DNA of 64,000 nt from an uncultured Lentisphaeria bacterium (GTDB lineage Bacteria; Fidelibacterota; UBA8477; JABMPR01), in contig CAYVVT010000002.1 of NCBI GenBank assembly GCA_964454335.1, positions 211,436 through 275,435 on the forward strand, in the 5' to 3' direction. Shown here piece by piece: positions 14,726 through 61,358 of this stretch. The notes under the pieces were generated by a model, which ran no database searches, had not been told where the DNA came from, and saw only the letters and a list, made by a program, of their open reading frames with translations. Both the position numbers and the translations under genes were made by a program. The stretch's first letter is position 1; every line of letters begins with the position of its first letter.

Positions 14726-14728
14726 TTT

Positions 14729-16262: not shown

Positions 16263-16339
16263 ACTCTTTATCTCCTCAGCTTCGCATCATTAATCATTGC
16301 TGGAAATCTGAAATTTGGAATTTGAAACCCGATAAGCTA

Positions 16340-18622: not shown

Positions 18623-18644
18623 GCGGTTCAGGCCCGGGTAATGC

Positions 18645-25270: not shown

Positions 25271-25281
25271 GTATTCGATCC

Positions 25282-31810: not shown

Positions 31811-31813
31811 ATC

Positions 31814-36200: not shown

Positions 36201-36422
36201 CAGAATATCAGTGCCACCTGGATAGGTTCCGGGTGCAACCAGGATGGTGTCCCCGGACGCTACCACATCTACGGCTTCCTGGATGCTTGGATATTGGCCG
36301 GGTACGCTCAATATGGTTGCTTCGATCTGACTTATGCCGATGGTGAGAGTGGATAGTGTTAAAATGATGTAGGATTGCAATCCCACAAGATACCCCCATT
36401 GTTGTAGAATGAAGTTATTCAT
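33285..36422 (-). CDS. large secreted right-handed beta-helix (pectate-lyase-like fold) protein with T9SS C-terminal sorting domain
   Basis: Start taken at ATG 36422 (signal MNNFILQQWGYLVGLQSYIILTL). Many glycine-rich parallel-beta-helix turns (NAAGQAGGGIW, NSASHGGGLAV, NTAGYSGGAMNI); C-terminus AYPNPFNASISMDIDL...GGLYFLRV is a T9SS CTD. Confidence 0.7.
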   Translation of the reverse strand: MNNFILQQWGYLVGLQSYIILTLSTLTIGISQIEATILSVPGQYPSIQEAVDVVASGDTILVAPGTYPGGTDILFKPSFTLASFLLTTGDSAYIDSTIITANSHGFNISNILDSTLMIAGFKIQESNRGIIIGDTSTIHLEHCHILSAYGGGIWVNGDSVIVTLQNSLIRNCGGPGGGGPGIYAAGSGVITIDACTIRDNVSYSDGLAGGLNTSGLSVDINNSRFTNNESHYLHIHILSHDLNDDPSGGAINAYISHLSLNNTTIDSNRSIPMEGYPSQYEVTGGGLRCRDSDVIINNCTIAHNAAGQAGGGIWQYRGSILLDSTSIIGNSASHGGGLAVSQSTIEVYSCTFESNTAGYSGGAMNISRPGPTLIGGSSENANSFTHNFAEHDGNALILQSWPEDQDIIDASYNGFTYYPVNELAVSPLEYFNLENGYYTVAPAITDDCYLSPSGSDENDGLTPETAIQTFQRASQSILSSLENQVTINLLAGTYSSTETGETFPIVLPDFVHISGAGQELSILDGENQHMVIRMDGGRDHEIRNLSIIRGGPGVHIAGCSPIFDHVSFMNCRANSGGACHVSGDEESISSPIFRNCEFLANYARHGGAIWLGIHTNPIIGGSEATGNYFDLNVAAYGCDIFTLSDVDPILNVGYNTFPLNPVSEYSIHPITSFDTSDCLGIYDPLDSPVYLRSDGSNLNDGNTTDTPLRDFSYALSRSSDMTPQEVLMLPGTYSASQGQIYPFVISRDSVSLLASSMNSVILTGGSVMVTNALACLIEGVKINWGSGMRIQNSEFLVKNCDLHHNTAGYALNLINSDGVVDYCSIQSTAGWEDNSHGMDECGGGGALYIDGGSPIISRTIFRDNNVCWPYNWYTIRVTGLSTPIFWGNHFHPELDDETITLYRQGPMIVATENWWGHATGPSHDSNPGGQGVIIQGNIEFDPWLAEPTLSTDGISPEVFHISAAYPNPFNASISMDIDLVRPARVEFQLFDLRGIQVYNIHFDLTAGSHQLQVLDHNNLILSGGLYFLRVSTGHNSTVRKITYLP

Positions 36423-36622
36423 GCACTCCGGATTGCGCAACACATGATCCCATCTCCTTTCCGCCAGACACATTTATGACAAAAACCATTTGAATTAACA
36501 GTTATAATATTTAGTATTACGTAGATTCACTTCACCTTCGACCAACTGCTCCATCAACCACATATCCAGTCCCTTTAGATCAAATACCCAGGGATTCACC
36601 AATCCAAGAAAGAGAGAACTCT

Positions 36623-37786
36623 ATGAGGTCACCAATAGGAATGGCTTTAATGCTCTTGCCTCTGGTTTCAGGCTTATCAGGCGAGATATTCATCAGTGAA
36701 TATTCTGACGCCGACGGTACCGGGAACTATATCTATGAATTCGTCGAGATCTACAACAACACCACGCAACAGGTGGATATCAGCGGGTATGTATTTCGAC
36801 AATTGAATTCCACGAAAACCTACACCGTTCCCGCCTCTACCAATATCCCTGCAAAGGGTTATTATGTTCTAGGCAGAAATGCAGACCAGGCTGCTTTTGA
36901 GACCTTCTGGAATGTCGATCTTGGCGAATCTGTCTTCTATCAGAATTCAACCAATAGCGGTCTCGCCATCAACGGAGCAGAAGTCTATCTGCTCGAGAAC
37001 AGTTCAGGGAGCAATGTCGATCCCACTGTAGATGACCAATATACGGCCCTGGCCGTCACCAGTGGCAATCGAGTTCATCGACTCAACGTGGGTAACTCAG
37101 CAACTGACTGGGCTCTTGATGACAATGTCAATGCCAGTCCGGGAAGACTTGATACTGATCAGACCCTGGCCGTGGAGCTGGGTAGCTGGGAGGTGGAGGA
37201 GATCAATGCTGCAGCTGTACTGAGTTGGACGACCCACTCGGAATATGAGAATCTGGGATTCATCCTGGAACGTTGGAATTCGGACGCGCTCGATACCATC
37301 GAGATCGCTTCATTCACGCAGTATAATGCCCTGCAGGGCCACAACTCCCGGTCGATAGAAACAGCTTATACCTTTACCGACCGGGATGTCCACCCAGGCG
37401 CCACCTACTGGTACCGGCTTAGCGATGTTGATTATTCAGGAAAACGCACGTATTACGCTCCACTGGAGATCACGATGTCAACCCGTTTGAAAGCTGCTGC
37501 GCAGCGGCAGATCGTCGCAGGGATCTATCCCAATCCTTTCAATCCAGGTGCCAGCATCCACATCGACATGCAGAGTGGGGATCAGGACGCTGGACGAATC
37601 GAGATCCGGGACCTGTGTGGAAGGCAGGTCAGTCTTCTCTGGGAAGGCCATGGGGCCGGCTTCCCGCAGCAGTTGATCTGGGATGGCACGGATCGAAATG
37701 GACTGGCTCTCCCATCTGGACCATATGTCCTCCTCGTTCATCAATTGAACACAAGTGAATCAATACCGATCATGCTCCTGCGCTGA
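36623..37786 (+). CDS. lamin-tail-domain (LTD) protein with T9SS C-terminal sorting domain
   Basis: N-terminal LTD-like region (FISEYSDADGTGNYIYEFVEIYN); C-terminus GIYPNPFNPGASIHIDM...GPYVLLV is a T9SS CTD. Confidence 0.65.
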   Translation: MRSPIGMALMLLPLVSGLSGEIFISEYSDADGTGNYIYEFVEIYNNTTQQVDISGYVFRQLNSTKTYTVPASTNIPAKGYYVLGRNADQAAFETFWNVDLGESVFYQNSTNSGLAINGAEVYLLENSSGSNVDPTVDDQYTALAVTSGNRVHRLNVGNSATDWALDDNVNASPGRLDTDQTLAVELGSWEVEEINAAAVLSWTTHSEYENLGFILERWNSDALDTIEIASFTQYNALQGHNSRSIETAYTFTDRDVHPGATYWYRLSDVDYSGKRTYYAPLEITMSTRLKAAAQRQIVAGIYPNPFNPGASIHIDMQSGDQDAGRIEIRDLCGRQVSLLWEGHGAGFPQQLIWDGTDRNGLALPSGPYVLLVHQLNTSESIPIMLLR

Positions 37787-37943: not shown

Positions 37944-39122
37944 GTGGACGCAGTCATACCAGCTCTCATCCTGATGATCATCGTCGTACTCGGCGCTCTC
38001 TCGACTGAACTTATCGTACACAAACGCGCGCTGAGTAAAATACCCATTCGCATCCACGTGAATGGGACCCGGGGCAAATCCAGCGTAACACGTCTCATCG
38101 CCGCCGGTCTGCGTACCGGGGGAATGTCCGTTCTGGGTAAGACCACCGGATCCTCACCGCGTATCCTTGATCTCTACGGCAAGGACAGACACATCCACCG
38201 TCTGGCCAATGCCAGTATCGGTGAACAGACCAGATTCCTGCGCTACTTCTCCCATTACAGGCCTCAAGCGGTGGTCCTGGAATGCATGGCGGTGCAACCC
38301 CAGTACCAGTGGGTGAGTGAACAGCGAATGCTGCACTCCACACACTCTGTCATAACCAATTCCAGACTGGATCACATTGAGGAAATGGGCCCCACCTTGG
38401 AAGACATCAGCCAGAGTCTGGGCAATACAATCCCGTTCAAGGGAAAGATCTTCACCGCCGAACAGGAGAACCTGGACATTCTGGAGGACATCGCCGAGAA
38501 GCGCGGTACCAGCATCAAAGCTGTCACCTCCGGGGATGTGGATGCCGATGATATGCACGGTTTCAATCATATCGAGCATCCCGAGAACGTGGCCCTGGCA
38601 CTATCTGTATGCGAAGCACTTGGCATTGAACGCGACTCCGCCCTGGAGGGCATGAAACATGCCCAGCCCGATCCCGGAGCCCTGCGGGTATGGGAACTTG
38701 GATCAGAAGGCAAGGTTTTCACATTCATCAATGCGTTCGCCGCCAACGATCCCCAGTCCACGCGTCAGATATGGAAGATGATCAAGGAGAATCCGGGACT
38801 ACCCCATGAGCACATTTGCGCCTTCCTGAACACCCGTTTCGACCGCGTCTCCAGGACCCGTCACCTTCTGGACCTGATCCTCAAGGAGATCGATCCGGAC
38901 CGTTTGGTGGTCCGTGGTGAACGATTGGACCGGTTTGAAAGGGATTACTTCAGGAAGCTGGGCAGCCGTGTCACCACACATTCCGAGCAGGAAGCACCCC
39001 AGCGGGTGATCGCCGATCTCCTGGACCAGGCTGACAACACTCTGATCTTCGGCATGGGGAATATCGTGGGCAGTGGTTTTGTACTGTTGGATGAATTGAA
39101 GAAGTACAGGATCAACGCATGA
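37944..39122 (+). CDS. pgsB: poly-gamma-glutamate synthase PgsB/CapB (Mur-ligase-like amide ligase)
   Basis: GTG start; motifs VNGTRGKSSVTRL, ECMAV, PDPGA, NAFAANDPQST match B. subtilis PgsB closely. Confidence 0.8.
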   Translation: MDAVIPALILMIIVVLGALSTELIVHKRALSKIPIRIHVNGTRGKSSVTRLIAAGLRTGGMSVLGKTTGSSPRILDLYGKDRHIHRLANASIGEQTRFLRYFSHYRPQAVVLECMAVQPQYQWVSEQRMLHSTHSVITNSRLDHIEEMGPTLEDISQSLGNTIPFKGKIFTAEQENLDILEDIAEKRGTSIKAVTSGDVDADDMHGFNHIEHPENVALALSVCEALGIERDSALEGMKHAQPDPGALRVWELGSEGKVFTFINAFAANDPQSTRQIWKMIKENPGLPHEHICAFLNTRFDRVSRTRHLLDLILKEIDPDRLVVRGERLDRFERDYFRKLGSRVTTHSEQEAPQRVIADLLDQADNTLIFGMGNIVGSGFVLLDELKKYRINA

Positions 39123-39568
39123 TAGAAATTGCCATTGGTTTAGGCATCATTCTCAGTCTCTGGCTCACCGAATGGCTGGGGGTCACTGCCGGGGGGATCA
39201 TCGTTCCCGGTTACATCGCCATGCATCTGCACGAGCCCCTGCGGGTGGTTGCCACCTTCACCATCAGCATCTGCGTTTTCCTTATCGTCCGCGGTCTGTC
39301 CGAATTCATGCTGATCTACGGCAAGCGTCGACTGGTACTTTCCCTGCTGCTGGGATTCCTGTTCGGCTATATCTCCAGGAATTACCTGGCCATCGATTTT
39401 GATGTCCTGGGATGGGAGTTCTATACCATCGGATACATCATTCCCGGCCTCATCGCCAGCTGGATGGACCGTCAGGGAGTCCTGAGGACCATCAGCGTTG
39501 TACTGATCACCGCCACCATCGTACAGCTCGCAGTCATGCTGATCAGTGGGGGATCCATCCATGTTTAG
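39119..39568 (+). CDS. pgsC: poly-gamma-glutamate synthase membrane subunit PgsC/CapC
   Basis: 149-aa multi-TM protein with GGIIVPGYIA and YIIPGLIAS motifs as in PgsC; start overlaps the pgsB stop. Confidence 0.75.
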   Translation: MIEIAIGLGIILSLWLTEWLGVTAGGIIVPGYIAMHLHEPLRVVATFTISICVFLIVRGLSEFMLIYGKRRLVLSLLLGFLFGYISRNYLAIDFDVLGWEFYTIGYIIPGLIASWMDRQGVLRTISVVLITATIVQLAVMLISGGSIHV

Positions 39569-40679
39569 ACCGGCTATCCAGCGTACAGAGGTCCTGGTGG
39601 GGATGGCCATACTCTCCCTGGTGGTTTTCTATATCACCAGCTCCATACATGTCGAAAAACGTGAACCAGCCTACGAAATGAAGATCCAGGCCGCCCAGCG
39701 GATGGCCAGATCCATGCAGATCCTGAAGGATGTACGCATGGAGGCAGCAGTATTCATCGACGATGTGAACGATCCCAACGAAACTGCGCTAGTGGGAAGT
39801 CAATTCACGCACATCACCACGGATGAGGGTGATCTGGATGCCAAGATCTCCATCCTGGATCCAAATGTGGCGGCCATGGTGGTGGACTATCTCGATCGGG
39901 CTGGACTGCAGTCCGGCGATACCGTGGCCATCACCGTGACGGGGTCCATGCCTGGCGGCAACCTGGCGGTCTATTGCGCTGTAGAGGAGTTGGGACTATA
40001 CCCGGTGATCGTTTCTTCAGTGGGAGCCTCACAATGGGGTGCCAATGTGGATGATTTCACCTGGTTGGATATGGAGCGGATCCTGGTGGATTCAGGTTTG
40101 ATCTCCTTTCACAGTCAGGCAGCCAGCCTGGGCGGGGGTAGTGACATCGGTCGGCGTCTGAGTCCCAGGGGCCGTGATCTCATCCGGGAGGCCATCCAGC
40201 GGAATGAGGTTCCATTTCTCTCCAGTAGCGATCTGGAGAATGCCATCGAGAATCGCATCGAGCTCTTTACAGCTGACATGGAACTGAATCGTTATAAAGC
40301 CTTCATCAATGTTGGCGGAGGAGCAGCCGTTCTAGGGGATGCGCTGACCGCCCGACTGATCCAGCCGGGCCTCTCAACGCGTGTTGACCTACCCACGTTA
40401 CGTAGCGATGGTGTATTATCCCATTTCGGCCGGGAGGGCGTACCGGTGATCCATATTCTCAATATCCGCGAGATGTTCGATGATTTCGAATATCCTTACG
40501 CATCCACGCCAACCCCTGAACTGGGTACTGGATCCTTCTACGCAAGTGAAAGGTACAGTCCAGCGGCAACGGCGATAGCGCTAGCGTTATTGCTGGGTAT
40601 GCTTATTACGGTAGGACTTAACAGCAAACGGAAGATCAGGGATTACCTGGAAGAACATGAGCCGGAAAGTTATGCTTAA
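39561..40679 (+). CDS. uncharacterised membrane-anchored protein in the PgsA position; not CapA-like
   Basis: Overlaps the pgsC stop; N-terminal TM anchor and a C-terminal TM. The metallophosphatase motifs of canonical PgsA/CapA (GNFE, NNH, GHHPH) were not found. Confidence 0.5.
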   Translation: MFRPAIQRTEVLVGMAILSLVVFYITSSIHVEKREPAYEMKIQAAQRMARSMQILKDVRMEAAVFIDDVNDPNETALVGSQFTHITTDEGDLDAKISILDPNVAAMVVDYLDRAGLQSGDTVAITVTGSMPGGNLAVYCAVEELGLYPVIVSSVGASQWGANVDDFTWLDMERILVDSGLISFHSQAASLGGGSDIGRRLSPRGRDLIREAIQRNEVPFLSSSDLENAIENRIELFTADMELNRYKAFINVGGGAAVLGDALTARLIQPGLSTRVDLPTLRSDGVLSHFGREGVPVIHILNIREMFDDFEYPYASTPTPELGTGSFYASERYSPAATAIALALLLGMLITVGLNSKRKIRDYLEEHEPESYA

Positions 40680-41526
40680 AAGAACAGTCATTCTCGCAGC
40701 CCTTGTTTCACTTGTGTCAGCGGACCTGCTGAAGCCAGCCAACGGAAGCAAGCAGAAAGAGATCCTCACCATATCCGAGAACCGGAGGGTCTACTATGAC
40801 CTGGAGTCGGACCCGCTGACCTACCTGATCAACGGACCTGTCAGGTTGAAGATCTATTCACGTTCGGTGTACGCTCGCAAGACCAGCGAGTCCCAGCGCT
40901 ATAACTTCACAGTGCGTATTGATGAGGGCAATCCCATCAACATCCAGCACACACAGAGAATTACCACCAGCGTGAAATCCAGCATGCATCCCAATCACTA
41001 TTATTCACGTTCGGCCATCGACTATCTCAACATCCCGGCCGGGCCACATGAAGTGCATTTCTACCGGGACAAGAAGAGTAAACCAACCCTTATCAGAGTG
41101 CTGGAGATAGACCTGAAACCAGAAGGATCCAAAAAACGGCTGGAACCACTCGAGAAGGCAACCCCGGTGTCGGTTCAGGCAAACGGCAAGTCTCTAAGGT
41201 ACTTTGAATTGAGCAATGACAATCCGCTGTACGTCCAAGTAGATGGACCTACCAATTTTGAAGTAATCACGCGCCTCGCCTTCCAGACCTGGATGGGGCG
41301 TGAGCAGGATTACCGGCTGCAGGTCTGGGATAATGGCAAGTTGGCCGGAACCTTCTATTTCAGTGGTGAACGATCTGAGGTTTCGACGGTGGCCGGTCGC
41401 GATGATCTGGTGCCAGGCAAATGGCGCAGCTGCTATATCCCCATCACCAAGGGACAACATAAATTGAAAATCAAACTACTGGACAACGACCGTAGCGTAT
41501 ACGTTCGCATGAATCGTATTGACTGA
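40657..41526 (+). CDS. hypothetical secreted protein with internal tandem duplication
   Basis: Signal peptide; two ~110-aa halves share the pattern RVYYDLESDPLTYLINGP... / LRYFELSNDNPLYVQVDGP...; overlaps the upstream gene. Confidence 0.45.
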   Translation: MSRKVMLKRTVILAALVSLVSADLLKPANGSKQKEILTISENRRVYYDLESDPLTYLINGPVRLKIYSRSVYARKTSESQRYNFTVRIDEGNPINIQHTQRITTSVKSSMHPNHYYSRSAIDYLNIPAGPHEVHFYRDKKSKPTLIRVLEIDLKPEGSKKRLEPLEKATPVSVQANGKSLRYFELSNDNPLYVQVDGPTNFEVITRLAFQTWMGREQDYRLQVWDNGKLAGTFYFSGERSEVSTVAGRDDLVPGKWRSCYIPITKGQHKLKIKLLDNDRSVYVRMNRID

Positions 41527-41528
41527 CC

Positions 41529-42566
41529 TTGAGATCACTCACCCTTTTACTCGTCCTTTCGCTGAGCGTCACCGCTCAGTCCCTCCTGCACAGGCTTGCT
41601 GCACCCGTACATTTGGAGACGGGTCTGCAACCAGCCTGGCAGAGCAATCCCCTGAATCTTTCAGAACCTGAGATCGAAAAAGCCGCAGCGGGAACGGGAT
41701 ATCTCGGTGATGTTGATGCTGTCCAGAGCCGGGTGCTAAGCCTCTACACAGTGGTCTCCTATGATCCTCGTATCTTCAATGGCCGCAGGACCGCCTTCGA
41801 GCTCAGGGGCTTCTACCATTCTCATTTTGACATTCCCCAGCGTAACTATGCCAGTCTGAATGTCTCCATACGTCAATCCCTGGGCGGCTGGCGCTTCCTG
41901 GAAGCGGGATATGGTCTGTTGCCTTCGCTGTATCTGAGGCATTATCGTTTCGACAATCATCCCAGCATCCTGCCCGGGCGCTACGCCTGCAGATTTGGCA
42001 CGGAACGCGGTTGGCTCGAATTTCAGCACCGGATCACTCCGGCAACCTCGCTGCAGTACCGCCTGACGCGACGGATCGAGCGCTATCAGGCCCCCTTCTC
42101 ACATTATGACATGCAAATGCTGGAAGCGGCTGTGGGTCTCAGATCGAAACCGCTTCGAGCTGTCACCGCCAGATTCGAGGTCCAGTACGGGCAGGCCAGC
42201 AATGACAACCATCTTGACGACCTGGATCGCAGCTACAGTTATCTGAATATCAGACCCGCTTTGAATTTCCCCATTCCAGGGGACCTGCTCCGATCCATAT
42301 CCCTCGATGGTCGTTTTGATCAACGCGCCTATCAGAGTGATGAGATCACAGACCCACTGCATGCGGGCCGTTACCAGTATGAGTACCGTCTGGATCTGCG
42401 TTTGTTTCCCCAGAGCAAGGACCGTATGAATTGGTATCCCTTCCTCGGTTATCGGCAGCGTATCGTGGAATCAGATTCAGATTTCGTGCAGGACCTGAAA
42501 TCATTCAAACGCTGGTGGTTCGGGATACGGATCGGTCTGAACTCAACAATTGATATCTATTTGTAA
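41529..42566 (+). CDS. hypothetical outer-membrane beta-barrel-like protein
   Basis: TTG start 2 nt after the upstream stop; signal peptide MRSLTLLLVLSLSVTAQS; Tyr/Arg-rich alternating strands. Confidence 0.4.
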   Translation: MRSLTLLLVLSLSVTAQSLLHRLAAPVHLETGLQPAWQSNPLNLSEPEIEKAAAGTGYLGDVDAVQSRVLSLYTVVSYDPRIFNGRRTAFELRGFYHSHFDIPQRNYASLNVSIRQSLGGWRFLEAGYGLLPSLYLRHYRFDNHPSILPGRYACRFGTERGWLEFQHRITPATSLQYRLTRRIERYQAPFSHYDMQMLEAAVGLRSKPLRAVTARFEVQYGQASNDNHLDDLDRSYSYLNIRPALNFPIPGDLLRSISLDGRFDQRAYQSDEITDPLHAGRYQYEYRLDLRLFPQSKDRMNWYPFLGYRQRIVESDSDFVQDLKSFKRWWFGIRIGLNSTIDIYL

Positions 42567-43645
42567 TGCTACAGGAACTACGGAATACCATGAAATTAAA
42601 AGCTATGAAGAAATGTGTCGCTTATGGTCTGGGCTTCTTCACCATCATACTGCTGGCGGGCTGTTTACGACCTGATCCCATCGAAGCGGATAATCTTGTG
42701 GAGTTGGACCTCCTCTACGAGATCAACACAGTGGGATGGGCCAGGGATATAGCCATACATGAGGACCTGATGTTCGTGGCCGCCTCCCAAGCCGGCGCAC
42801 AGATCTGGGATCTGGGTGGTGAAACTCCCGAACTGGTATATCAGGAGGATTTCGGCAGCGACGATCTGGAGTTGATCCGCTACGATGCACGCAATCGTCT
42901 TCTCCTGGCCTCAGACCGGACCATCGTCCACTATCGGGCAATGGACAGCACGAACATCGGTCTGGATTCGGCGTACTATGACAATCCCAGTGCCTTCCTG
43001 GATCCCCGGCAGCTCTCTGATGGCAACACCCAGGATTTCACTTTCACCTCCCAGGACAGCCAACTTGTCATTTATCTGACAGATAGGGACTTTTCGGACG
43101 GCCTGAAACGCATATTCCTTACCTTCTCCGAGGAAAGCACCTTTGGTGGTCAGTACTGGTCGCCTGAAGGTCATAAACTGGTGAACGGTCACATGCGTGG
43201 ACTGGACATGCAGGATGATCTGGTCGCTGTTACTATCGAAGAGTTGGGTATCGCCCTGTTCCAGGTCAGCCCGTCCACCATCGACACCCTGGCCTTCGCC
43301 GATACGCCCGGGGAAGCCCTGGAAACGATTTTCTCAGGTGATCGTCTGCTGGTAGCCAACAACTGGGGCGGATTGCAGATCTTTGACTGGGATGGCAGCA
43401 GCCTGGAGTCTTTGAGCATACTGGATTTTGATGAGAATGTGGAACATATATCCATCTGGGGTGACGCTGTCATCCTGAGCTGTGGCCTGGATGAATGCTA
43501 CATCGTCGATCTCACCGATCCTGCAGATCCGCAGGTGGACCAGTTTATCGAGAGCGGTTATTGTTATCGCAGTACCGTGGACGGCGACAGGGTTTATATG
43601 GCAACCCGGGATGGTGTGAAAGTATACAGTATAAGCCTCAATTAG
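42566..43645 (+). CDS. lipoprotein with LVIVD-like beta-propeller repeats
   Basis: Lipobox FTIILLAGC; repeated DxxLVxx...GLxIxD units (e.g. DRLLVANNWGGLQIFD); start overlaps the upstream stop (TAATG). Confidence 0.5.
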   Translation: MLQELRNTMKLKAMKKCVAYGLGFFTIILLAGCLRPDPIEADNLVELDLLYEINTVGWARDIAIHEDLMFVAASQAGAQIWDLGGETPELVYQEDFGSDDLELIRYDARNRLLLASDRTIVHYRAMDSTNIGLDSAYYDNPSAFLDPRQLSDGNTQDFTFTSQDSQLVIYLTDRDFSDGLKRIFLTFSEESTFGGQYWSPEGHKLVNGHMRGLDMQDDLVAVTIEELGIALFQVSPSTIDTLAFADTPGEALETIFSGDRLLVANNWGGLQIFDWDGSSLESLSILDFDENVEHISIWGDAVILSCGLDECYIVDLTDPADPQVDQFIESGYCYRSTVDGDRVYMATRDGVKVYSISLN

Positions 43646-52783: not shown

Positions 52784-55700
52784 ATGAAATATGTCCTCGT
52801 ACTTATAATGATGATCTCAGCGCTGGTGGCTGAAGAGCACTTCGCCTGGGCTTTGAACGGGATACCGATTCGCCAGGGTGTGCATATTGAGTGGCAGCGC
52901 ACCGCAGATTCCGGCAACGAGGGCGAATTGATCTTCGCCTGGTCCGATACCCGCAATGGTGATCGTGATGTCTATATGCAGAAGATCGATTTGGCAGGGA
53001 ACAAGCTCTGGGGTGAAACGGGTGTTCAGGCCAGCGTAACCTGGGGTCGTCAGGAAGATCCGGTCATCGTGTCCGACGGCATGGGTGGAGCCTTTCTTGC
53101 CTGGATCGATTACCGTGCCGATGAATATGGTGATGTCTACGGTCAGTATATCAACAGTGATGGATTGCTGCAATGGGATCCAGCCGGAGTTCCGCTGGCA
53201 GTCAATGACGGTGCCCAGCAGACTGCCAATATGGCCAGGGGCGGGGAAGGTTATGCCTTCGTCATCTGGGACGATTGGTCGCAGTCTGAACAGGGTGACA
53301 TCTTTGGTCAGGTCCTGAGTGTGAGTGGTCCCATTGAAGATCCCGAGCACAACGGATTCCCGGTTGCGGATGCTGCGGGCAGCCAGTCTTCCCACACCAT
53401 TGAGAACAGTGGATCGGATGCCGTGGTGGCCTGGGTGGATACGCGAGATCCGTCAAATCCAGATATCTATGCCCAGCGTCTGGATAACGCTTTCAACAAA
53501 CATTGGACTGACCAGGGTACCCTGGTCTGCGGTGAGGCCAGCGAACAAAGTGCGCCCAAGGTAGCCCCGGCTGACGGGGACCGGGTTGTCTTGAGTTGGC
53601 TGGATCCACGGAATAATGACAAGGGTGATGTTTATTCACAGATCCTGAACGTTGACGGTGAAGCTGCCTGGACGGCGAACGGGATTGCGGTAACAAATTT
53701 GAGTGCAGAACAGAATCGACCCAGGGTCAAGTCCAATGGAGTCGATCTGCTTTATTACATCTGGGAGGATTTTCGGAACAACAACCAGGATCCGGATATC
53801 TATACCCAGGCTCTGAATTTTGATGGTACCCCACACTGGACCGCTGACGGTATCCCGGTGAGCACAGCAGATCTGAAACAATTGCAGCCGAGGATCACAG
53901 TGGAGAGCAGCGGTGGATTCTTCGTCGTCTGGTTGGATGAACGCCAGGGTGGTTTCCCACAGTCTGATGTCTACATCCAGAAGGTGAACGATGACGCCAG
54001 CATGGATTTCATCGCCGATGGATTAGCCCTCACTGATGCTAAACGTTATCAGACAGGTGGTCTTGTACGACCTGACGGTTCGGGTGGTGCGATGGTGGTG
54101 TGGGGGAACGCCTCCACCGGAAGCATCGGCATCATGGCCCAACATGTAAGCAGTGACGGCAGTCAGAGCTGGGACGCAGACGGAACGGAATACTTCTTTG
54201 GCATCGATGGAGATGCTTCCCGCGGCCGTGCCTTACCCTGGGGCGACCATGAGGTAATGGTCTTCTGGGAGGATAACAGGCTTGCTGCAACTGGTGCCGT
54301 TGCCACTGCCCAGGTGATCAGCCGCAATGCAGGGATCAGCCACATTCTTGACGGTAAATCCCTTTCCACGAACGATGAGCAGGCGGTACCGGTGATCACT
54401 CCGGACCACGCCAACGGTGCCTACCTGGGATTCATGAACAAAACTACCGGGATCGAGATCCTGTATGCCCACCGTATCGATGAGAACCTGGACGCGGTCT
54501 GGCCGAGTGACGGCATCCGCATCTATGAAGAGAGTTTTGGGGCACAGGAAGCACCTTTCGTGGTGGCGGACGGTGACGGCAATCTGTTCTATTTCTGGTC
54601 TGAGTTGAGATTCGGGCCATACACGATCTACATACAGAAGTTCGATCCAGAGGGGAACGCCCACTGGCAGGCTGACGGCGTGGAGATCGGTGGTGACATG
54701 ATCTATCGTGATAAATACGTCACTGATGCAGTACTGCTGGCAGATGGTGGTATTTTCTTCGTTTGGGAAGCCATTTCGTGGGATGATGTCGATGTACATG
54801 TATCCAAGATCGACAACGATGGCGTTCTGCAATGGTCTCAGCCAATCACCGAGGCCACCGGGATCCAGGAAAATCCGGAGCTGGCCTTCGATGTTACCCT
54901 GGATCTCGCCTATATCGGCTGGCATGATGCCCGACAGGCAGCTACGAATGGTGTCGATCTCTATTATCGCTCGGTAACCAGCGACGGCACATTGGGGGAA
55001 GAACTCACCGTGGTTGAAAGCAGCGGCGACCAGACCGAACTGGCCCTGAGCCTGGCCGATGATGACAGTGGCGTCCTCTACGCCGCGTGGGAAGATTATC
55101 GCGACGGCCTTCAACATGATATCTTTGTCCGTGAACTGAACAGCTCCAGCAGCGAGATCCAGATCACGACTGAATCATCGGAGGACCTGGCACCGGCTCT
55201 GCGAGTTGTAAGCGCTTCCCACTTCTTTGTTGTCTGGGAAGATTTCCGCAACGGGATCCATTCAGATCTGTATTTCTATGATTCCGAGATCGGGCACGAA
55301 TACAACGTTCCCGGTGGTGTGCCCCTGTGTGTGGATGTTCTGAACCAGAGTGATCCACAGATTGCTGCCTATGCGGACAATTCACCTGATTCATCAGCAT
55401 ACATAATCGTCTGGGAGGACATGCGTTCATCAGGGAAGACAGAATTGACTAATATCTATGCCCAGGGCTATATCGAAGGTGCTGTGGCCATCGACGATGA
55501 CGAGGTCACAGTCCAGGATTTCCAGGTCATGCCCGCTTTCCCCAATCCCTTTAACGGTACTACAAGCATTCCGGTGGAACTCAACCGTCCCGGCATGGTG
55601 AAGTTGACGATCCATGACCTCCAGGGCCGGGAGATCTTCAGCCAGTCGGAATATCTCAGCGGTAACCAGACGCTGCAATGGATCGGGCACACTGATGACC

Positions 55701-55786
55701 TGCAGGAATTGGGCAGCGGTGTCTACATCGCCAGGATAGAATTTGCCGATCAGTCACTCAGTCAGAAACTGATCTATCTGCGCTAA
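52784..55786 (+). CDS. secreted protein with about 16 tandem ~50-aa beta-propeller-like repeats and T9SS C-terminal sorting domain
   Basis: Repeats of the type DVYxQxIxxDGxxxW (DVYMQKIDLAGNKLW, DIYAQRLDNAFNKHW, DVYSQILNVDGEAAW ...); C-terminus FPNPFNGTTSIPVELN...GVYIARIEF is a T9SS CTD. Confidence 0.6.
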   Translation: MKYVLVLIMMISALVAEEHFAWALNGIPIRQGVHIEWQRTADSGNEGELIFAWSDTRNGDRDVYMQKIDLAGNKLWGETGVQASVTWGRQEDPVIVSDGMGGAFLAWIDYRADEYGDVYGQYINSDGLLQWDPAGVPLAVNDGAQQTANMARGGEGYAFVIWDDWSQSEQGDIFGQVLSVSGPIEDPEHNGFPVADAAGSQSSHTIENSGSDAVVAWVDTRDPSNPDIYAQRLDNAFNKHWTDQGTLVCGEASEQSAPKVAPADGDRVVLSWLDPRNNDKGDVYSQILNVDGEAAWTANGIAVTNLSAEQNRPRVKSNGVDLLYYIWEDFRNNNQDPDIYTQALNFDGTPHWTADGIPVSTADLKQLQPRITVESSGGFFVVWLDERQGGFPQSDVYIQKVNDDASMDFIADGLALTDAKRYQTGGLVRPDGSGGAMVVWGNASTGSIGIMAQHVSSDGSQSWDADGTEYFFGIDGDASRGRALPWGDHEVMVFWEDNRLAATGAVATAQVISRNAGISHILDGKSLSTNDEQAVPVITPDHANGAYLGFMNKTTGIEILYAHRIDENLDAVWPSDGIRIYEESFGAQEAPFVVADGDGNLFYFWSELRFGPYTIYIQKFDPEGNAHWQADGVEIGGDMIYRDKYVTDAVLLADGGIFFVWEAISWDDVDVHVSKIDNDGVLQWSQPITEATGIQENPELAFDVTLDLAYIGWHDARQAATNGVDLYYRSVTSDGTLGEELTVVESSGDQTELALSLADDDSGVLYAAWEDYRDGLQHDIFVRELNSSSSEIQITTESSEDLAPALRVVSASHFFVVWEDFRNGIHSDLYFYDSEIGHEYNVPGGVPLCVDVLNQSDPQIAAYADNSPDSSAYIIVWEDMRSSGKTELTNIYAQGYIEGAVAIDDDEVTVQDFQVMPAFPNPFNGTTSIPVELNRPGMVKLTIHDLQGREIFSQSEYLSGNQTLQWIGHTDDLQELGSGVYIARIEFADQSLSQKLIYLR

Positions 55787-55807: not shown

Positions 55808-58198
55808 TTGCGGAATCGCGTCTTTAGCAACGCTGTCCTGGCGGCAGTCATCTTTCTGACAGGTATTTCCCTGGAAGCGGAGCAGTTCGCAGCCTGCGGA
55901 CATCGGGATCACAACAGCATTTCCAATGCCTTCCGGGAATCGGTTCTGGATTCAAACTTCCACACCTACGACGAGATCGTCAGCTACCTCGATTCTGTAG
56001 ATCAGGTCCCTGAGCTTGAGTCGATCCTGGAAGTCTACGAGATCGGTTATTCCACGAACGAGGATCTGCCCATCAAGGCCATCAAGATATCGGATAATCC
56101 CACCTTGGAGGAAGATGAAGCCGCCCTGCTGTTCCTGGGACAATGCCATGCCGAGGAGATCCTGGGCGTTGAGATCAGCATGGGGCTCATCGACTCCTTG
56201 ATCAGCGGATTCAGCACCGGGAATCCACATATCATGGCCCTGATCCAGAACCTGGAGATCTGGGTGGTCCCCACACATAATCCAGAAGGGCTCCAGGTCG
56301 TGCATGATGGTTGGGACGTGACCTATAGGAAAAACAAGACGGACTGCAATGAGAACGGTGCGTTTGATTTTGTGGAAGGTATCGGCTGGGATATTGACGG
56401 GATCGATCTCAATCGGCAGTACGACTTCAACTGGATCTATGGGGACGCATACCTGGAAGGTGACTACGATTATTTCCGCGGCTTCGAACCCTTCAGCGAA
56501 TCCGAGGTACAGGCTGTAGCTGCCCTGGCGCGGGAGCAGCATTTCGTATTCTCCATTGCCTATCATTCCGCCCGCTCCGGTACGCCTGAGATCGTTTACT
56601 ACTCCTGGGAATGGGAAGATGTGAAGACACCGCCCGATTATCCCATCATCGATGAGCTGGCCCAGGAGCTGGCCGCCCGGATCATCAACGAATCCGGTGA
56701 CGGCAATTATGCTTCCCATCCGGGTACAACCCGGCGGGGGAACGCCCATGACTGGTTCTACACACAGACAGGCTGCATCCAGTTCCTGGTGGAATGCGGA
56801 ACCAACAATCTGCAGCCTGAAGGGCCCATCATCCTTGATACCGTTCAGCGCAACCTCGTAGGCTGCTTCTTTCTCCTGGATCGTGCGCTGGGATATCCTC
56901 CAGAGAGTCGCTCTCAGATCCGGGGCATCGTTCAGGACGCGTCGGATAACTTTCCGCTTGAGGGAGCTCAGGTGAGTGTATACCACCACACTCTGGATGA
57001 AGGTATCGTCCCCTTTGAGGGGCCTATGCTGGTTCCCCGTCGAACGGACGAATTTGGAAGATATCGCCGGATTCTGCAACCGGGTACCTATACGCTCGTC
57101 GCCTCAGCGCCGGGATTTGAATCCGACACGGTTGCTGGGGTATCTACAAGTGACAGCTATCCCAGCGATGTCGATTTCACCCTGTTACCCATGCCTGAAA
57201 AAGATTTCACCCTGGTGCTGCCACCAAGGGACGGATTGAGCCAATACACTGTGATCATGGCCGACAACACCCAGCGAGATACTCTAAATCTCGCGCCAGG
57301 GAATTTCCATATTAGCTGGCAGGGTCATTACGTTGACCTCACCGTATCCGCTGAAGGCTTTTTCCCCGAATTGCATCAAGTGGTCCTGGACAGTATCCCG
57401 GATGGGTACGTCTATGAACTTGGAATTCATCTGCCGGAGCATTATGTCGTTCTTCAGCATGGTTTTGAGGATCTGGTGGGCTGGGATGTCAATGGTCCCA
57501 ACTGGTTCCTCTGGGATGGAAAGATATTCACTCAGGCTGCCATGACCTATCTGCCTGGAGATGATGTTTCCCTGACCTCGCCTATTTTCTCGCTGAGCAC
57601 CTACAAACGTGTTGCCGTTGAGATCCACCACCAGTATGAACTGGAGTGGGATATCGACAGCGTCTCAGTGGATATCCTGGATCATAATACCGGACAGGTT
57701 GTGTTACACAAGGCCTGGATGGGGCAGGATTACGAACCGCACAGCGACCTTGTCTTCGAGGTTGGTGACCTGCCTGGATTTGGTCGGCTGAGACTGAGTA
57801 TGGCAGCGGATTCGACAGTTGAGTTCCGTGGCTGGGTCATTGACAGTATAGCGGTCATGATCACCAATGAAGAAGTGGTTGCGGTAGACGACAGGTTGAA
57901 GGAACACCAGCGTTCACAGCCAATGGAGGCCAGACTCAGTCTGCAACCCAATCCCGTGCGCAACCAGACATCGGTATACTTCGAACTGCCAGGCGCGCTG
58001 GAAATTGAGATCGAGATATTCGATGTTCTGGGGCGACGGATCAAGCACTCCGGCCTGCAGGGGGTAGCAGGGAATAATCAATGGTCCTGGCAAGGCGTGG
58101 ACCAGTATGGCAGCCGGGTACCCGCAGGGATCTACTTTCTCAGGATGACGGGACCGGAACTTCAGGTCACACAGAAATTCATGTTGTTGGCACCTTGA
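55808..58198 (+). CDS. M14-family zinc carboxypeptidase with regulatory-like beta-sandwich domain and T9SS C-terminal sorting domain
   Basis: TTG start; zinc/active-site-like motifs GQCHAEEILG, THNPEG, DLNRQY, IAYHSAR, FLVECG; C-terminus LSLQPNPVRNQTSVYFEL...GIYFLRM is a T9SS CTD. Confidence 0.7.
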   Translation: MRNRVFSNAVLAAVIFLTGISLEAEQFAACGHRDHNSISNAFRESVLDSNFHTYDEIVSYLDSVDQVPELESILEVYEIGYSTNEDLPIKAIKISDNPTLEEDEAALLFLGQCHAEEILGVEISMGLIDSLISGFSTGNPHIMALIQNLEIWVVPTHNPEGLQVVHDGWDVTYRKNKTDCNENGAFDFVEGIGWDIDGIDLNRQYDFNWIYGDAYLEGDYDYFRGFEPFSESEVQAVAALAREQHFVFSIAYHSARSGTPEIVYYSWEWEDVKTPPDYPIIDELAQELAARIINESGDGNYASHPGTTRRGNAHDWFYTQTGCIQFLVECGTNNLQPEGPIILDTVQRNLVGCFFLLDRALGYPPESRSQIRGIVQDASDNFPLEGAQVSVYHHTLDEGIVPFEGPMLVPRRTDEFGRYRRILQPGTYTLVASAPGFESDTVAGVSTSDSYPSDVDFTLLPMPEKDFTLVLPPRDGLSQYTVIMADNTQRDTLNLAPGNFHISWQGHYVDLTVSAEGFFPELHQVVLDSIPDGYVYELGIHLPEHYVVLQHGFEDLVGWDVNGPNWFLWDGKIFTQAAMTYLPGDDVSLTSPIFSLSTYKRVAVEIHHQYELEWDIDSVSVDILDHNTGQVVLHKAWMGQDYEPHSDLVFEVGDLPGFGRLRLSMAADSTVEFRGWVIDSIAVMITNEEVVAVDDRLKEHQRSQPMEARLSLQPNPVRNQTSVYFELPGALEIEIEIFDVLGRRIKHSGLQGVAGNNQWSWQGVDQYGSRVPAGIYFLRMTGPELQVTQKFMLLAP

Positions 58199-58235: not shown

Positions 58236-61200
58236 ATGAGGCTCCTTTTGAATAGAATTTACAGAACCCTCGTTCCAGTGATCCTCGCAAGTCAGGTCTT
58301 TGCCGCACAGGGCCCCCTTGGTTTTGAGAAGCTTATGAATGCCTATCCGGATGTCAGGGAGAATTATGCCTGGCAGACCTATCAGCGTGGTGACTTCCTG
58401 GTGATTGGCGCTGATGCACTGATGGACAATCCCTTCATGGGTCTCTACAGGGAATTCAAGGAGCGTCAGGGTTTCCGAGTGACGATGACGGGTCTCAGTG
58501 AGGCAGGGAACACCTCTGCCGCTATCAAGGATTACATTGCCGATTTCTACAGCAGTCATGCACTGGAATATGTACTGCTGGTAGGGGATGTCACCGGGGC
58601 CTTTGCATTGCCCAGCTATAGCTTCGGACCGGAAAACGATGTCACCGATCTGCCGTATGTGCTGCTGGAAGGGTCCGGCGACGATTATTTTCCGGAAGCC
58701 TTCATCGGTCGCTGGCCGGTAGATACGCAATCAGACCTGGCGGTGATCGTCAACAAGACCATTCAATATGCCTCAAATCCCTACATGGGTTCTGATTGGA
58801 TGGACAAGGCCCTGGTCGTTGCCGGGAATTACGCCGATACGGGGACGATCCTCACACCGGTATGGACATCATACTGGTTAAGGGATGAACTTGATGATTA
58901 CGGATACACACAGGTCGATACCGTATTCTTCCCGCCGGTGACCCAGCCAACTGACGTTCTCAACTCCTGGAACTCGGGGGTGGGGATCGTGAATTACCGA
59001 GGATGGGGTGATGCCCATGGCTGGCATTATCCCCATTTCCATGTATCAGATTTTGATGAAGGCAGCCTGTCCAATGGTTTCCAGCTACCTATCGTGTTCA
59101 GCTTCGTCTGTGGAACAGGCAAGTTTGACAGTTCCATCGATCCATCCTTCTGTGAAGCCATGCTAACCCTGGGGACCTTTACCGCTCCTGCAGGCGCTGT
59201 GGCGGTGGTAGCGCCTTCTGATCTGCATACCCGCACTAAATTCAACAATGCCCTGAACACAACCCTGTGGGATGCCCTGCTGGAGGGACGCGCCAACGAA
59301 CTGGGGCCAGCACTACTGGCCTGTAAGTTCGGATTCCTCAACGAGTTCACCGATCAGACCGGGCCCGGGGAGATGGCAGAATTCTACTATCATACCTACA
59401 ATATCATAGGCGATCCCAGCCTGCCCATCTGGTTGGGAACACCGGATATTATCGATATCAGCGCCGAGGACCTGGGACCGGTGTTCTGGGACTCAGGCTT
59501 GATAACCATGACCAGCTCTGAACTACCCGAAGGCGTTTTCGCACTGCGTCATGGTGAGGAACTGGTTGGCGCAGGACGCTGGACCGATGGGAACATCCGA
59601 ATCTATCGATTTGACGGCCATGCCTTCTACGATCCCGAGAAGGAATCCGAAGCCCTGGAGATCACCCTCAACGTTCCGGGTCATGTCCCCCTCACGCTGG
59701 AGGTCATGCCGGAGACTGGCGCTGAACAATGTTTTGCAGGATTTGCTGAGTCACTGTACCCGGGGATCGACTCCTGGTCTCTCCAGGTGGATAACCATGC
59801 TGCAGCGAGCGTGGATGCAAGCGTGGGTATCAGCATTCCGGGAACGGATTACAATCATGATTTTGGAACAGTCACCATTCCGGCCCAGACCACACTGACC
59901 CTGTCACCCCTCTCGGCGCCCGTTATCCCCCTGGGAACTCGCGAGCAGGTGATTGAGATCAGCATCGATGGTGTTACCCGCAGCGCTGCCATTCCTCTAG
60001 CTATGGTCCATGCTGATATCGAGCTTGATTTTGGAGAGATGCTGCGTCCCATCCCCGGTGAATCCTTTGAAGTAGACCTGAGCGGCGTTCTGGTGGGCAT
60101 GCCGGTTTCAGCACTGGATCTGGATGTTAGTCTTTCCAGTCCTGCAGAATTCGCAAGTCTTGATGACATCAGCGGAAGCGCCACCCTTTCCACCGCCGGT
60201 GAACTGGTCTTTGAGGATGCCCGTTTTTCCGGGAGCATCTCTGATATTGCCCCGGGCAGCCGTTTACCGCTGCATTTTGATTTTACCCTGGCCGGGCAGT
60301 CGGAATCCTTTCATCAAGCGGTATTCTCAGTGTTGGTGGGCAGCGTGAGCAGTACCGATCCCACACCACCCTGCGAGGCAGGATATTGGGCCTACGACAA
60401 CACCGATGTGGACTTTGCCCAAGCACCTGAGTATAACTGGCTTGATCTATCCGAGGAAGGTGGAGCAACCCATGTCCTGCTGGGTGATGATGACCACACG
60501 CTGGTGGACCTGCCCTTCACATTCAGATATTTTGGTGTTGACTACAACAATCTGACGATCAATTCCAACGGCTGGGCAGCCTTCGGTCCGGATTACATCA
60601 ACTATTTCCGGAACTGGTCGATCCCCATGCCTCTGGGTGCTGATGCCATGATGGCACCATTCTGGGACGACCTTGACAATGACAGTCTGGTAGCCGGGCA
60701 GGAACAACCGGTACCCATCGATATCTACTACTACCAACAAATCGGCGATCCAGGGGCTTTTATCGTACAATGGGATGAGATCTACAATGGCTTTGGTGAC
60801 CGCAGCTATACCGAAACATTTCAGCTGCTGCTGTACGATCCCGCCTCGATGGTGGCGGAGGATGGAAACGGCATCATCGAATTCCAGTACAGCGAAGTAC
60901 ACGATGTGGATCAGATCAACAATTACACCACAGTTGGCATCGAGAGCCCCGATCAGAATGATGGGCTCCAGTATGTCTACAATCGGGTCTATGCACCCGG
61001 GGCTACAGAACTCGGTGCAGGCCTGGCTATACGATTTACCACGGATCCACCGGATAACTACTGGGCTTCGATCAGTGAAGCCCTGCCATTACCGCAGGTA
61101 TTCAAGCTTGGAATGCCCTACCCGAACCCATTCAATCCTGAAGTGTCGATTCCGTTAGAGATCAAGGGTACCGGCCATGTATCCGTTGCCATCTACAATC

Positions 61201-61358
61201 TCCGGGGACAGTTGGTCCGGGAGATCGATACTGCAGGCCTGGCAGCGGGTACGCACAGGCTACAATTCAATGCCGGTGATCTGGCTGCAGGGCTGTATCT
61301 GGTCCGCGCGGGTCGTAGTGATGAATTTCAGGTACAGAAGATCACTCTGCTGAAGTAG
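58236..61358 (+). CDS. gingipain-like C25-family cysteine peptidase homolog, 1040 aa, T9SS C-terminal sorting domain
   Basis: C25 hallmarks YVLLVGDVTGAF, FPEAFIGRWP, VNYRGWGDAHGW, FVCGTGKFD, GDPSLPIW; C-terminus PYPNPFNPEVSIPLEI...GLYLVRA is a T9SS CTD. Confidence 0.75.
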   Translation: MRLLLNRIYRTLVPVILASQVFAAQGPLGFEKLMNAYPDVRENYAWQTYQRGDFLVIGADALMDNPFMGLYREFKERQGFRVTMTGLSEAGNTSAAIKDYIADFYSSHALEYVLLVGDVTGAFALPSYSFGPENDVTDLPYVLLEGSGDDYFPEAFIGRWPVDTQSDLAVIVNKTIQYASNPYMGSDWMDKALVVAGNYADTGTILTPVWTSYWLRDELDDYGYTQVDTVFFPPVTQPTDVLNSWNSGVGIVNYRGWGDAHGWHYPHFHVSDFDEGSLSNGFQLPIVFSFVCGTGKFDSSIDPSFCEAMLTLGTFTAPAGAVAVVAPSDLHTRTKFNNALNTTLWDALLEGRANELGPALLACKFGFLNEFTDQTGPGEMAEFYYHTYNIIGDPSLPIWLGTPDIIDISAEDLGPVFWDSGLITMTSSELPEGVFALRHGEELVGAGRWTDGNIRIYRFDGHAFYDPEKESEALEITLNVPGHVPLTLEVMPETGAEQCFAGFAESLYPGIDSWSLQVDNHAAASVDASVGISIPGTDYNHDFGTVTIPAQTTLTLSPLSAPVIPLGTREQVIEISIDGVTRSAAIPLAMVHADIELDFGEMLRPIPGESFEVDLSGVLVGMPVSALDLDVSLSSPAEFASLDDISGSATLSTAGELVFEDARFSGSISDIAPGSRLPLHFDFTLAGQSESFHQAVFSVLVGSVSSTDPTPPCEAGYWAYDNTDVDFAQAPEYNWLDLSEEGGATHVLLGDDDHTLVDLPFTFRYFGVDYNNLTINSNGWAAFGPDYINYFRNWSIPMPLGADAMMAPFWDDLDNDSLVAGQEQPVPIDIYYYQQIGDPGAFIVQWDEIYNGFGDRSYTETFQLLLYDPASMVAEDGNGIIEFQYSEVHDVDQINNYTTVGIESPDQNDGLQYVYNRVYAPGATELGAGLAIRFTTDPPDNYWASISEALPLPQVFKLGMPYPNPFNPEVSIPLEIKGTGHVSVAIYNLRGQLVREIDTAGLAAGTHRLQFNAGDLAAGLYLVRAGRSDEFQVQKITLLK

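Follow-up and report, generated by a model that had tools for sequence, protein, structure and literature searches.

A conserved envelope gene cluster behind the poly-gamma-glutamate synthase genes of Marinimicrobia, Bacteroidota and KSB1 bacteria

We report a six-gene locus on a 64,000-nucleotide (nt) stretch of contig CAYVVT010000002.1 (hereafter the window, meaning that whole stretch) from a bacterium of the group that we call Marinimicrobia (SAR406, Neomarinimicrobiota), in which the poly-gamma-glutamate (PGA) synthase genes pgsB and pgsC are followed by pgsW and by three further envelope genes, designated g4, g5 and g6 (Table 1). Judged by family models, PgsB and PgsC are the predicted inner-membrane polymerase core and PgsW takes the place of PgsA/CapA. 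The three envelope genes are co-inherited with this PgsBCW core, in fixed order, across phyla, and their functional linkage to the PGA core is well supported. We lean, by a small balance of the evidence, towards reading the locus as a PGA system of the Fibrobacteres-Chlorobi-Bacteroidetes (FCB) group in which g4 and g5 would carry the polymer through the envelope, and g6 and a secreted protein of the C25 (gingipain) peptidase family would act at the surface.

A PGA synthase core with PgsW in place of CapA

The identities proposed for the first two genes by the first-pass annotation, which had been made from the sequence alone, are borne out, as both proteins score above the cut-offs of their equivalog models. 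PgsB belongs to TIGR04012 (E=7.7e-121; 403 bits against a cut-off of 223), also matches Mur_ligase_M, and has its hydrophobic segment at residues 7-25, while PgsC belongs to TIGR04011 (E=1.2e-35; 122.7 bits against a cut-off of 96) and matches PF14102 (E=5.8e-33). In Bacillus subtilis, PgsB and PgsC alone are enough for polymer production and PgsA alters the D/L ratio of the product (PMC6029982); hence the two genes of the window plausibly form a complete polymerase, and a lineage-specific third partner is plausible as well.

The third gene stands where PgsA/CapA stands in the Bacillus locus, and its product matches NCBIfam TIGR04332 at 307.4 bits against a cut-off of 100, with 303 of the 307 model positions covered. 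The RefSeq gene symbol of this family is pgsW, as used for example on the Cetobacterium somerae plasmid NZ_CP143320.1, which is annotated pgsB-pgsC-pgsW. The protein is thus a member of a curated family rather than the novel, uncharacterised inner-membrane protein for which it had first been taken. The accompanying claim that it is not a canonical PgsA/CapA held, because the protein has neither a PGA_cap match nor a metallophosphatase-like fold. The window protein matched no Pfam family, 46 diverse relatives matched neither PGA_cap nor any other Pfam family even at E<=10, a profile of the PgsW family found no relative by sequence in the PDB, and a confident structural model gave no metallophosphatase-like fold match; taken together, these results rule out a divergent CapA. 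Elsewhere in the window, no CapA was found among open reading frames (ORFs) of at least 150 amino acids (aa) between 30278 and 61358 or among ten CapA-sized ORFs outside that interval.

In the same model, PgsW consists of an N-terminal membrane helix, an alpha/beta domain of ~300 aa for which no close solved relative was found by fold, and a C-terminal membrane helix followed by the positively charged tail KRKIR. By the positive-inside rule, both termini would lie in the cytoplasm and the globular domain in the periplasm, and the structure-prediction check that had been suggested for 39561-40679 agrees with the expectation, with two membrane helices flanking the domain and its periplasmic side predicted by that rule. 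Conserved polar residues comprise D71, K95, S129, S153, S157, D170, E172, R232 and N250. The family is large, with at least 1,232 clusters at 50% identity in an exhaustive HMMER search (E<=0.001). We found almost nothing on TIGR04332 in the literature; the only relevant item was a 2025 preprint on Cloacimonadota, which names the third gene 'PgsF' and presents the operon of CapB, CapC and a third gene as the typical Gram-negative organisation. The 'capA' of Francisella tularensis (FTT0807) is named 'poly-gamma-glutamate system protein' (PMC5362203), and we place it in the PgsW family by this RefSeq product name alone.

Conservation of the cluster across phyla

A motif-based scan, with one genome per species, placed PgsW relatives in at least 519 genomes, a lower bound because the query was limited to sequences sharing FTWLDME. 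From these we took the best 80 of the 519 genome loci with 10-kb flanks, together with three metagenome loci, so that the sample represents the loci most like that of the window, and we searched the ORFs of 84 loci with iteratively built hidden Markov models of g4, g5 and g6. Across these 84 loci, pgsB was found in 79, pgsC in 81, pgsW in 84, g4 in 80, g5 in 78 and g6 in 65. Wherever the contig reaches pgsB and pgsC, pgsW follows them directly on the same strand, as it also does in the Cetobacterium RefSeq locus, and g4-g5-g6 come directly after pgsW with constant order and strand.

When redundancy was removed and only loci with at least 3.4 kb of sequence after pgsW were considered, 61 of 69 carried g4, g5 and g6 together, and these came from Marinimicrobia, Bacteroidota and KSB1. 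The remaining eight comprised six unclassified metagenome-assembled genomes (MAGs) with g4 and g5 only, one Rikenellaceae locus with none of the three, and one Cloacimonadota locus with g5 only. Labelled carriers span Marinimicrobia, Bacteroidales, Lentimicrobiaceae, Sphingobacteriia, KSB1 and Cloacimonadota. The genes flanking the cluster vary by lineage; conservation is therefore specific to the cluster. Loss of the downstream genes from beside pgsBC in other FCB genomes had been named beforehand as an outcome that would count against the first-pass proposal, and the 61 loci show the opposite. Word-indexed protein searches returned 41 matches for g5 and 12 for g4, all of them close relatives.

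Several loci depart from the six-gene form. In the Cloacimonadota locus (JAQVPR010000013.1, 4801-6679; L057), the three-gene operon is followed by a clear g5 homologue and by a diverged g4-like ORF, the latter 278 aa long, at the position of g4, and weakly aligned to the g4 profile (E=1.5e-4). The five-gene form pgsBCW-g4-g5 occurs in the unclassified MAGs (L042, L043, L047, L063, L070 and L071), some of them genomes of 4.5-5.4 Mb, in which neither a g6 homologue nor a C25-like gene was seen within the fetched flanks, that of L043 ending ~200 nt after g5. No homologue of g4, g5 or g6 was found within 8 kb at the pgsBCW locus of Cetobacterium somerae (Fusobacteriota), where ggt and an AstE-like gene precede pgsBCW and a subunit of a tripartite ATP-independent periplasmic (TRAP) transporter is also encoded. 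Some database labels look wrong and may stem from binning errors: three loci from 'uncultured Lentisphaeria' (L010, L016 and L040) encode PgsW proteins 54-67% identical to Marinimicrobia PgsW, and a locus from a 'Clostridia bacterium' (L044) is Bacteroidota-like and encodes a C25 protein with a type IX C-terminal domain.

Bacteroidales-type loci continue after g6 with a gene for a 370-aa membrane protein bearing an HGSNAT_cat-like acyltransferase domain (PF07786, E=1.3e-15; L054:14301-15413) and then with one for a 290-420-aa protein with a weak DUF1425 match (L054:15459-16349). Besides this example they occur in 20 and 17 other loci, respectively, mostly Bacteroidota, and may be further, lineage-specific members of the cluster.

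Three envelope proteins outside described families

The first-pass annotation had counted four uncharacterised envelope proteins. For g4, g5 and g6 this stands, as none of the window proteins matched a described Pfam or NCBIfam family above threshold; for gene 3 it falls with the assignment to TIGR04332. Its individual descriptions of the three proteins fared well. The product of g4 is indeed secreted and duplicated, with a Sec-type signal peptide and no lipobox, the Sec-type signal being kept in all phyla examined, and with two homologous domains of ~125 aa each (hhalign of the two halves: 99.2% probability, E=1.3e-19). Neither 25 diverse homologues compared with Pfam nor their profile compared with the PDB gave a meaningful match. 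The mature protein has a net charge of +11 and an isoelectric point (pI) of 9.5, with family medians of +16 and 9.6.

The outer-membrane beta-barrel predicted at 41529-42566 was likewise recovered by structure prediction, as a barrel of 14 strands with an AlphaFold2 (AF2) predicted local distance difference test score (pLDDT) of 90, behind a signal peptide. Its closest structures are the large-pore monomeric channels CymA and OmpG, at sequence identities of 7-12%, with FadL-family proteins also among the closest, and the likeness to CymA is structural only, since neither g5 nor 11 diverse homologues matched the CymA porin family PF16941 at E<=1. The protein is basic (pI 9.15). We tried and rejected the idea that g5 is one of the known outer-membrane exporters (Poly_export/Wza, PgaA, BcsC, AlgE or PelB), as it shows no Poly_export/Wza domain and, in place of a barrel of 16-18 strands with a periplasmic tetratricopeptide repeat (TPR) domain, has 14 strands and no TPR. 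A loop of g5, DPLHAGR (residues 275-281), is almost invariant from Marinimicrobia to Bacteroidales, whereas the remainder of the protein is ~17-25% identical; the model, which is less confident there, shows it as a loop that could serve for constriction or binding.

The description of g6 as an LVIVD-repeat lipoprotein also agrees with the homologues. The lipobox reads LLAGC, its Cys is invariant across 25 homologues, and 19 of these match LVIVD (PF08309) at E<=0.1, the best at E=2e-36, so the g6 family as a whole belongs to the LVIVD propellers even though the window protein itself scores 12.5 bits against a cut-off of 20.2. With a net charge of -42 and a pI of 4.05, g6 is strongly acidic.

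Histidine-less C25 proteins attached to the cluster

Clustering of all ORFs from the loci revealed a large ORF family with members in 71 loci, of which a C25-domain member adjoins the cluster. The first-pass annotation had overlooked this gingipain-family secreted protein, which abuts the cluster in most loci; its notion of a six-gene unit is right in that six packed genes share one strand, and too narrow in setting a strict limit at six. The window's own member, g7, matches PF01364 (E=8.8e-62) and NIDO (E=1.6e-11), and aligns with gingipain R RgpB in phmmer (E=2e-29). In RgpB the catalytic dyad is formed by His211 and Cys244. Compared with the RgpB structures 1cvr and 4ief, the motif YTGHG is YRGLG in g7 and VACVNG is SIVCGGG, so that g7 has Leu at the place of the catalytic His but retains the Cys. 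The same holds more widely: in 78 of 78 locus-associated C25 domains, the His position is occupied by E, W, Y, F or L and never by His, the Cys is always kept, and the motif YRGxG is common to all. The replacement is E in Bacteroidota, and W, Y, F or L in Marinimicrobia and KSB1. These proteins are possibly pseudo-peptidases or enzymes of a different chemistry. Scores against the PorU and PorU2 equivalog models stay far below the cut-offs (29.1 bits against 420 and 38.5 bits against 450, respectively).

In Bacteroidota and in a second clade of Marinimicrobia, the C25 gene (product of ~1,190-1,260 aa) directly precedes pgsB, with gaps of 10-180 nt; in KSB1 and in the clade of the window it directly follows g6, at -17 to +13 nt. 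An automatic count finds a C25-domain gene no more than 300 nt away from the cluster in 56 of 82 loci; it misses the window, because the longest-ORF start of g7 (43495) overlaps g6, and it misses L060, because the C25 gene there is split into pieces of 640 and 476 aa. The six MAG loci that keep g4 and g5 lack g6 and the C25 gene together. The locus proteins typically combine a C25 propeptide, Peptidase_C25, an Ig-like domain, often a NIDO-like region, and a type IX C-terminal domain, which in g7 is replaced by a dockerin-like domain; g7 is also very acidic, with a net charge of -150. Further examples of the subfamily can be found at L002:4747-8337, L054:4456-8241 and L046:8116-13125.

Locus layout and neighbouring genes

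The six genes are same-strand ORFs at the coordinates that the first-pass annotation had given for 37944-43645. The tight packing that it described is real; its figures of 4-nt overlaps or gaps of 2 nt or less are not exact, given an 8-nt and a 23-nt overlap. The pgsB/pgsC junction is a 4-nt overlap, pgsC and pgsW overlap by 8 nt (pgsW ATG at 39561), and pgsW and g4 overlap by 23 nt if g4 starts at the ATG at 40657 or by 8 nt if it starts at the ATG at 40672, which is the start in public gene calls (P0310, 284 aa). A 2-nt gap separates g4 from g5, which starts with TTG at 41529, g5 and g6 overlap by 1 nt, and g6 is followed by g7 after 8 nt; an alternative start of g6 is possible at 42605 (MKKC...). 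The base composition of the region is nothing unusual, and the scan gave fewer promoter-like sites than shuffled sequence, and terminator-like sites in about the expected number. No Rfam family and no tRNA were found within the window.

Table 1. Genes of the PGA locus and of the neighbourhood downstream of it, in window positions
Feature	Position	Strand	Description
pgsB	37944..39122	+	PGA synthase ligase subunit, N-terminal membrane helix
pgsC	39119..39568	+	Small integral-membrane partner of PgsB
pgsW (gene 3, g3)	39561..40679	+	TIGR04332 'poly-gamma-glutamate system protein'
g4	40657..41526	+	Secreted basic protein, two homologous domains, outside described families
g5	41529..42566	+	Predicted 14-strand outer-membrane-type beta-barrel, signal peptide, outside described families
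g6	42566..43645	+	Very acidic lipoprotein of an LVIVD-repeat beta-propeller family
g7	43654..48132	+	C25 (gingipain-family) domain, NIDO-like and dockerin-like domains
Second His-less C25-like paralogue	48220..52713	+	C25, NIDO and dockerin-like domains
1000-aa secreted protein	52784..55786	+	Type IX secretion C-terminal domain; Por_Secre_tail E=3.2e-6
M14 zinc carboxypeptidase	55808..58198	+	Peptidase_M14 E=2.8e-35, CarboxypepD_reg, Por_Secre_tail (type IX C-terminal domain)
Third C25-like protein	58236..61358	+	PF01364 E=5.4e-58; Por_Secre_tail E=3.2e-8 (type IX C-terminal domain)

Downstream, a gene order conserved in Marinimicrobia follows the cluster, comprising genes for a type IX cargo protein of 1000 aa and an M14 carboxypeptidase as well as more C25-like genes, and extending in the window to 61358. 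The paralogue next to g7 matches PF01364 at E=1.4e-61 and carries the motifs YRGLG and SVVCGGG. Proteins of ~1000 aa occupy the position equivalent to 52784..55786 in the second Marinimicrobia clade, which also has a C25-like gene of the YRGWG type at ~+9.4 kb, and the M14 family recurs at ~+7.1 kb in 15 Marinimicrobia loci (e.g., L002:17030-19348). This carboxypeptidase is a candidate polymer-trimming enzyme. A succinylglutamate desuccinylase gene lies directly upstream of pgsB in the Cetobacterium pgsBCW locus (L086:5234-6367), and the succinylglutamate desuccinylase family is related to M14; an M14-type enzyme may be a recurring partner of PGA loci, possibly for polymer trimming.

Shortly before pgsB, the window encodes another two cargo proteins of type IX secretion, a right-handed beta-helix protein of 1062 aa (33285-36473, - strand) and a lamin-tail-domain protein of 387 aa with a FlgD_ig/Por_Secre_tail C-terminus (36623-37786, + strand), and, at 30278-33136, a TldD/PmbA metallopeptidase gene pair. 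Further away (13676-19412 and 24329-25339, both - strand) are genes for HypD, a HypE-like AIR-synthase-related protein, a HypB/CobW-type GTPase and an NrfD-type polysulfide-reductase membrane subunit; these hydrogenase-maturation and NrfD-type genes suggest a hydrogen or sulfur metabolism in this Marinimicrobia genome.

Proposed export mechanism and rival explanations

From fold, predicted location, charge and conserved gene order, we infer that g4-g6 export PGA across the outer membrane. On leaving PgsBC, the growing polyanion would emerge into the periplasm and there encounter the globular domain of PgsW. The tandem-domain protein g4, itself basic, would then bind, shield and escort the polymer, and g5, a likewise basic monomeric channel of 14 strands, would let it through the outer membrane. 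Retention, processing or organisation of the polymer would fall to two proteins that act at the outer membrane or on the cell surface, namely the propeller lipoprotein g6, which is acidic, and the adjacent, secreted His-less C25-like protein; in Marinimicrobia the M14 carboxypeptidase may also take part. The basic nature of g4 and g5 fits the handling of a polyanion, and the charge contrast between these two proteins and the strongly acidic g6 and g7 is the most specific indirect argument for the mechanism.

Several observations weigh against this export reading. By structure, g5 is most like channels for uptake. Beside the pgsBCW genes of the Fusobacteriota locus g4-g6 are missing, and Fusobacterium nucleatum is a reported PGA producer, so that g4-g6 may not be needed for release from a cell with two membranes. 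That PgsW-type loci in these phyla make PGA at all is a prediction from their genes, and the capBCA genes of Francisella are needed for virulence and have not been tied to a PGA capsule (PMC4688374).

The resemblance of C25-like protein, g5 and g6 to the type IX attachment complex raises another explanation, that of a surface-attachment module that tethers cargo to PGA, or PGA to the surface, with PGA as the anionic anchor. It would account for the C25-family gene immediately beside the cluster in most loci (10-180 nt away when upstream, -17 to +13 nt when downstream), for the joint absence of g6 and the C25 gene from the six unclassified MAG loci with g4 and g5, and for the type IX cargo among the neighbouring genes, and 4 of 25 g6 homologues weakly match PorZ_N_b_propeller. 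Bacillus anthracis anchors PGA via the transpeptidase CapD, and anchoring is thus a known step in PGA biology. We nevertheless judge attachment unlikely, since sortase or peptidase chemistry as in gingipains or PorU is hard to square with the lack of the catalytic His in 78 of 78 C25 domains, scores of 29-38 bits fall far short of the 420-450 that the PorU and PorU2 models require, the structure of g5 resembles CymA and OmpG far more than PorV, and some lineages keep g4 and g5 with neither g6 nor the C25 protein. A combined version, for which we see quite a low chance, makes PGA a surface architecture built together with type IX secretion: PgsBCW would make the polymer, g4 and g5 would pass it outwards, and g6 and the His-less C25-like proteins would bind it or link it with the outer membrane or with secreted proteins. 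If so, PGA in the FCB group would take the role that anionic lipopolysaccharide (LPS) has in Porphyromonas, beyond that of a loose capsule, and abundant Marinimicrobia/SAR406 of the ocean would coat themselves in, and shed, a polyamide polymer.

Transport in the opposite direction, with g5 as the channel and g4 as a periplasmic binder that take up gamma-glutamyl peptides or oligomers rich in glutamate, whether to supply the synthase or to recycle the polymer, seems improbable to us. The likeness of g5 to the uptake channels CymA, OmpG and the FadL family would suit it, as would the secreted peptidases (M14 and C25-like) that flank the cluster and the TRAP transporter subunit, ggt and AstE-like gene beside pgsBCW in Cetobacterium; on the other side, no inner-membrane importer is conserved in the FCB loci, PGA synthesis is fed by cytoplasmic glutamate, and g4-g5 are fixed right after the synthase genes with overlapping stops and starts, which is more typical of the subunits of one machine. 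We hold equally doubtful that the product is something other than free PGA, for instance a short oligo-glutamate chain decorating a lipid, glycan or protein of the envelope, built by the PgsB-like ligase, PgsC and PgsW and handled by g4-g6. Francisella requires capBCA for virulence, yet capB and capC reportedly have no part in making a capsule, and no PGA was shown (PMC4688374). The fold of PgsW has no solved relative, and its conserved polar residues could form a catalytic or binding site. Against such a product, PgsB and PgsC score as equivalogs of characterised enzymes. PGA was also reportedly demonstrated in Fusobacterium nucleatum, by Candela et al. in 2009. A Cloacimonadota enrichment with the three-gene operon, moreover, formed clumps stained with 4',6-diamidino-2-phenylindole (DAPI) that the authors of the 2025 preprint interpreted as PGA. 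Finally, that g4-g6 are unrelated envelope genes that came to lie beside pgsBCW by chance is extremely improbable, with order and strand kept in 61 of 69 informative loci from at least three named phyla whose flanks differ.

Significance

PGA biology rests almost entirely on Bacillus, and the models that we found do not cover how PGA passes, or is displayed beyond, an outer membrane. Reviews assign PGA transport to PgsA, and the PGA model of CapsuleFinder has no outer-membrane component, its authors stating that bacteria with two membranes (diderms) need at least one more protein for translocation. The locus described here is the best available candidate for the handling of PGA beyond the inner membrane in double-membraned bacteria, and it joins three undescribed families (g4, g5 and g6) and the curated, unstudied PgsW in a unit conserved across several phyla. 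Its carriers include Bacteroidales of gut and sludge, which are maybe easier to culture than Marinimicrobia and make the question testable by genetics. The Marinimicrobia, very abundant in the sea, could also be producers of PGA, which would bear on dissolved organic nitrogen, on the binding of metals and on attachment to particles. The tie to type IX secretion through His-less gingipain-family proteins had not been anticipated.

Comparison with known systems

With the Bacillus systems PgsBCA(E) and CapBCADE, the locus shares the PgsB and PgsC equivalogs and the arrangement of ligase, small membrane subunit and membrane-anchored extracytoplasmic third protein. The third protein in Bacillus is CapA/PgsA (PGA_cap, PF09587), to which PgsW has no similarity in sequence or fold, and the host of the window locus has two membranes and three additional envelope genes. 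The part of the window that was scanned yielded no CapD/GGT; no search was aimed at PgsE. As CapA was looked for and is absent, the locus is not of the Bacillus PgsBCA type. Going by its gene content, it is a member of the annotated pgsB-pgsC-pgsW class, the Gram-negative cassette with the same core, descriptions of which end at three genes. To this cassette the window and most FCB loci add g4, g5, g6 and the attached C25-like gene; the Cloacimonadota preprint omits the g5 and the diverged g4 that locus L057 carries. The g4-g5-g6 extension and its link to the His-less C25 proteins lie outside Pfam and NCBIfam and outside the literature that we searched.

In layout, the locus is similar to the synthase-dependent exopolymer systems of diderms (PgaABCD, alginate AlgK/X/E, Pel and Bcs), with no sequence relationship. 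Its predicted polymer is a polyamide and not a polysaccharide, the g5 barrel has 14 strands and no TPR, and g4 and g6 have no sequence counterparts in those systems. CymA, the cyclodextrin channel of Klebsiella oxytoca, and OmpG are likewise monomeric barrels of 14 strands, but they import sugars, whereas g5 is encoded in an operon for biosynthesis and has a conserved loop of its own, DPLHAGR. Compared with the type IX attachment complex, which comprises the C25-like sortase PorU, the barrel PorV and the propeller PorZ, the predicted propeller of the window belongs to an LVIVD-type family and has a lipobox, its C25 proteins have no catalytic His, and g5 is nearer to CymA than to PorV; the likeness is that the window encodes the same three types of part together, in a neighbourhood rich in type IX cargo.

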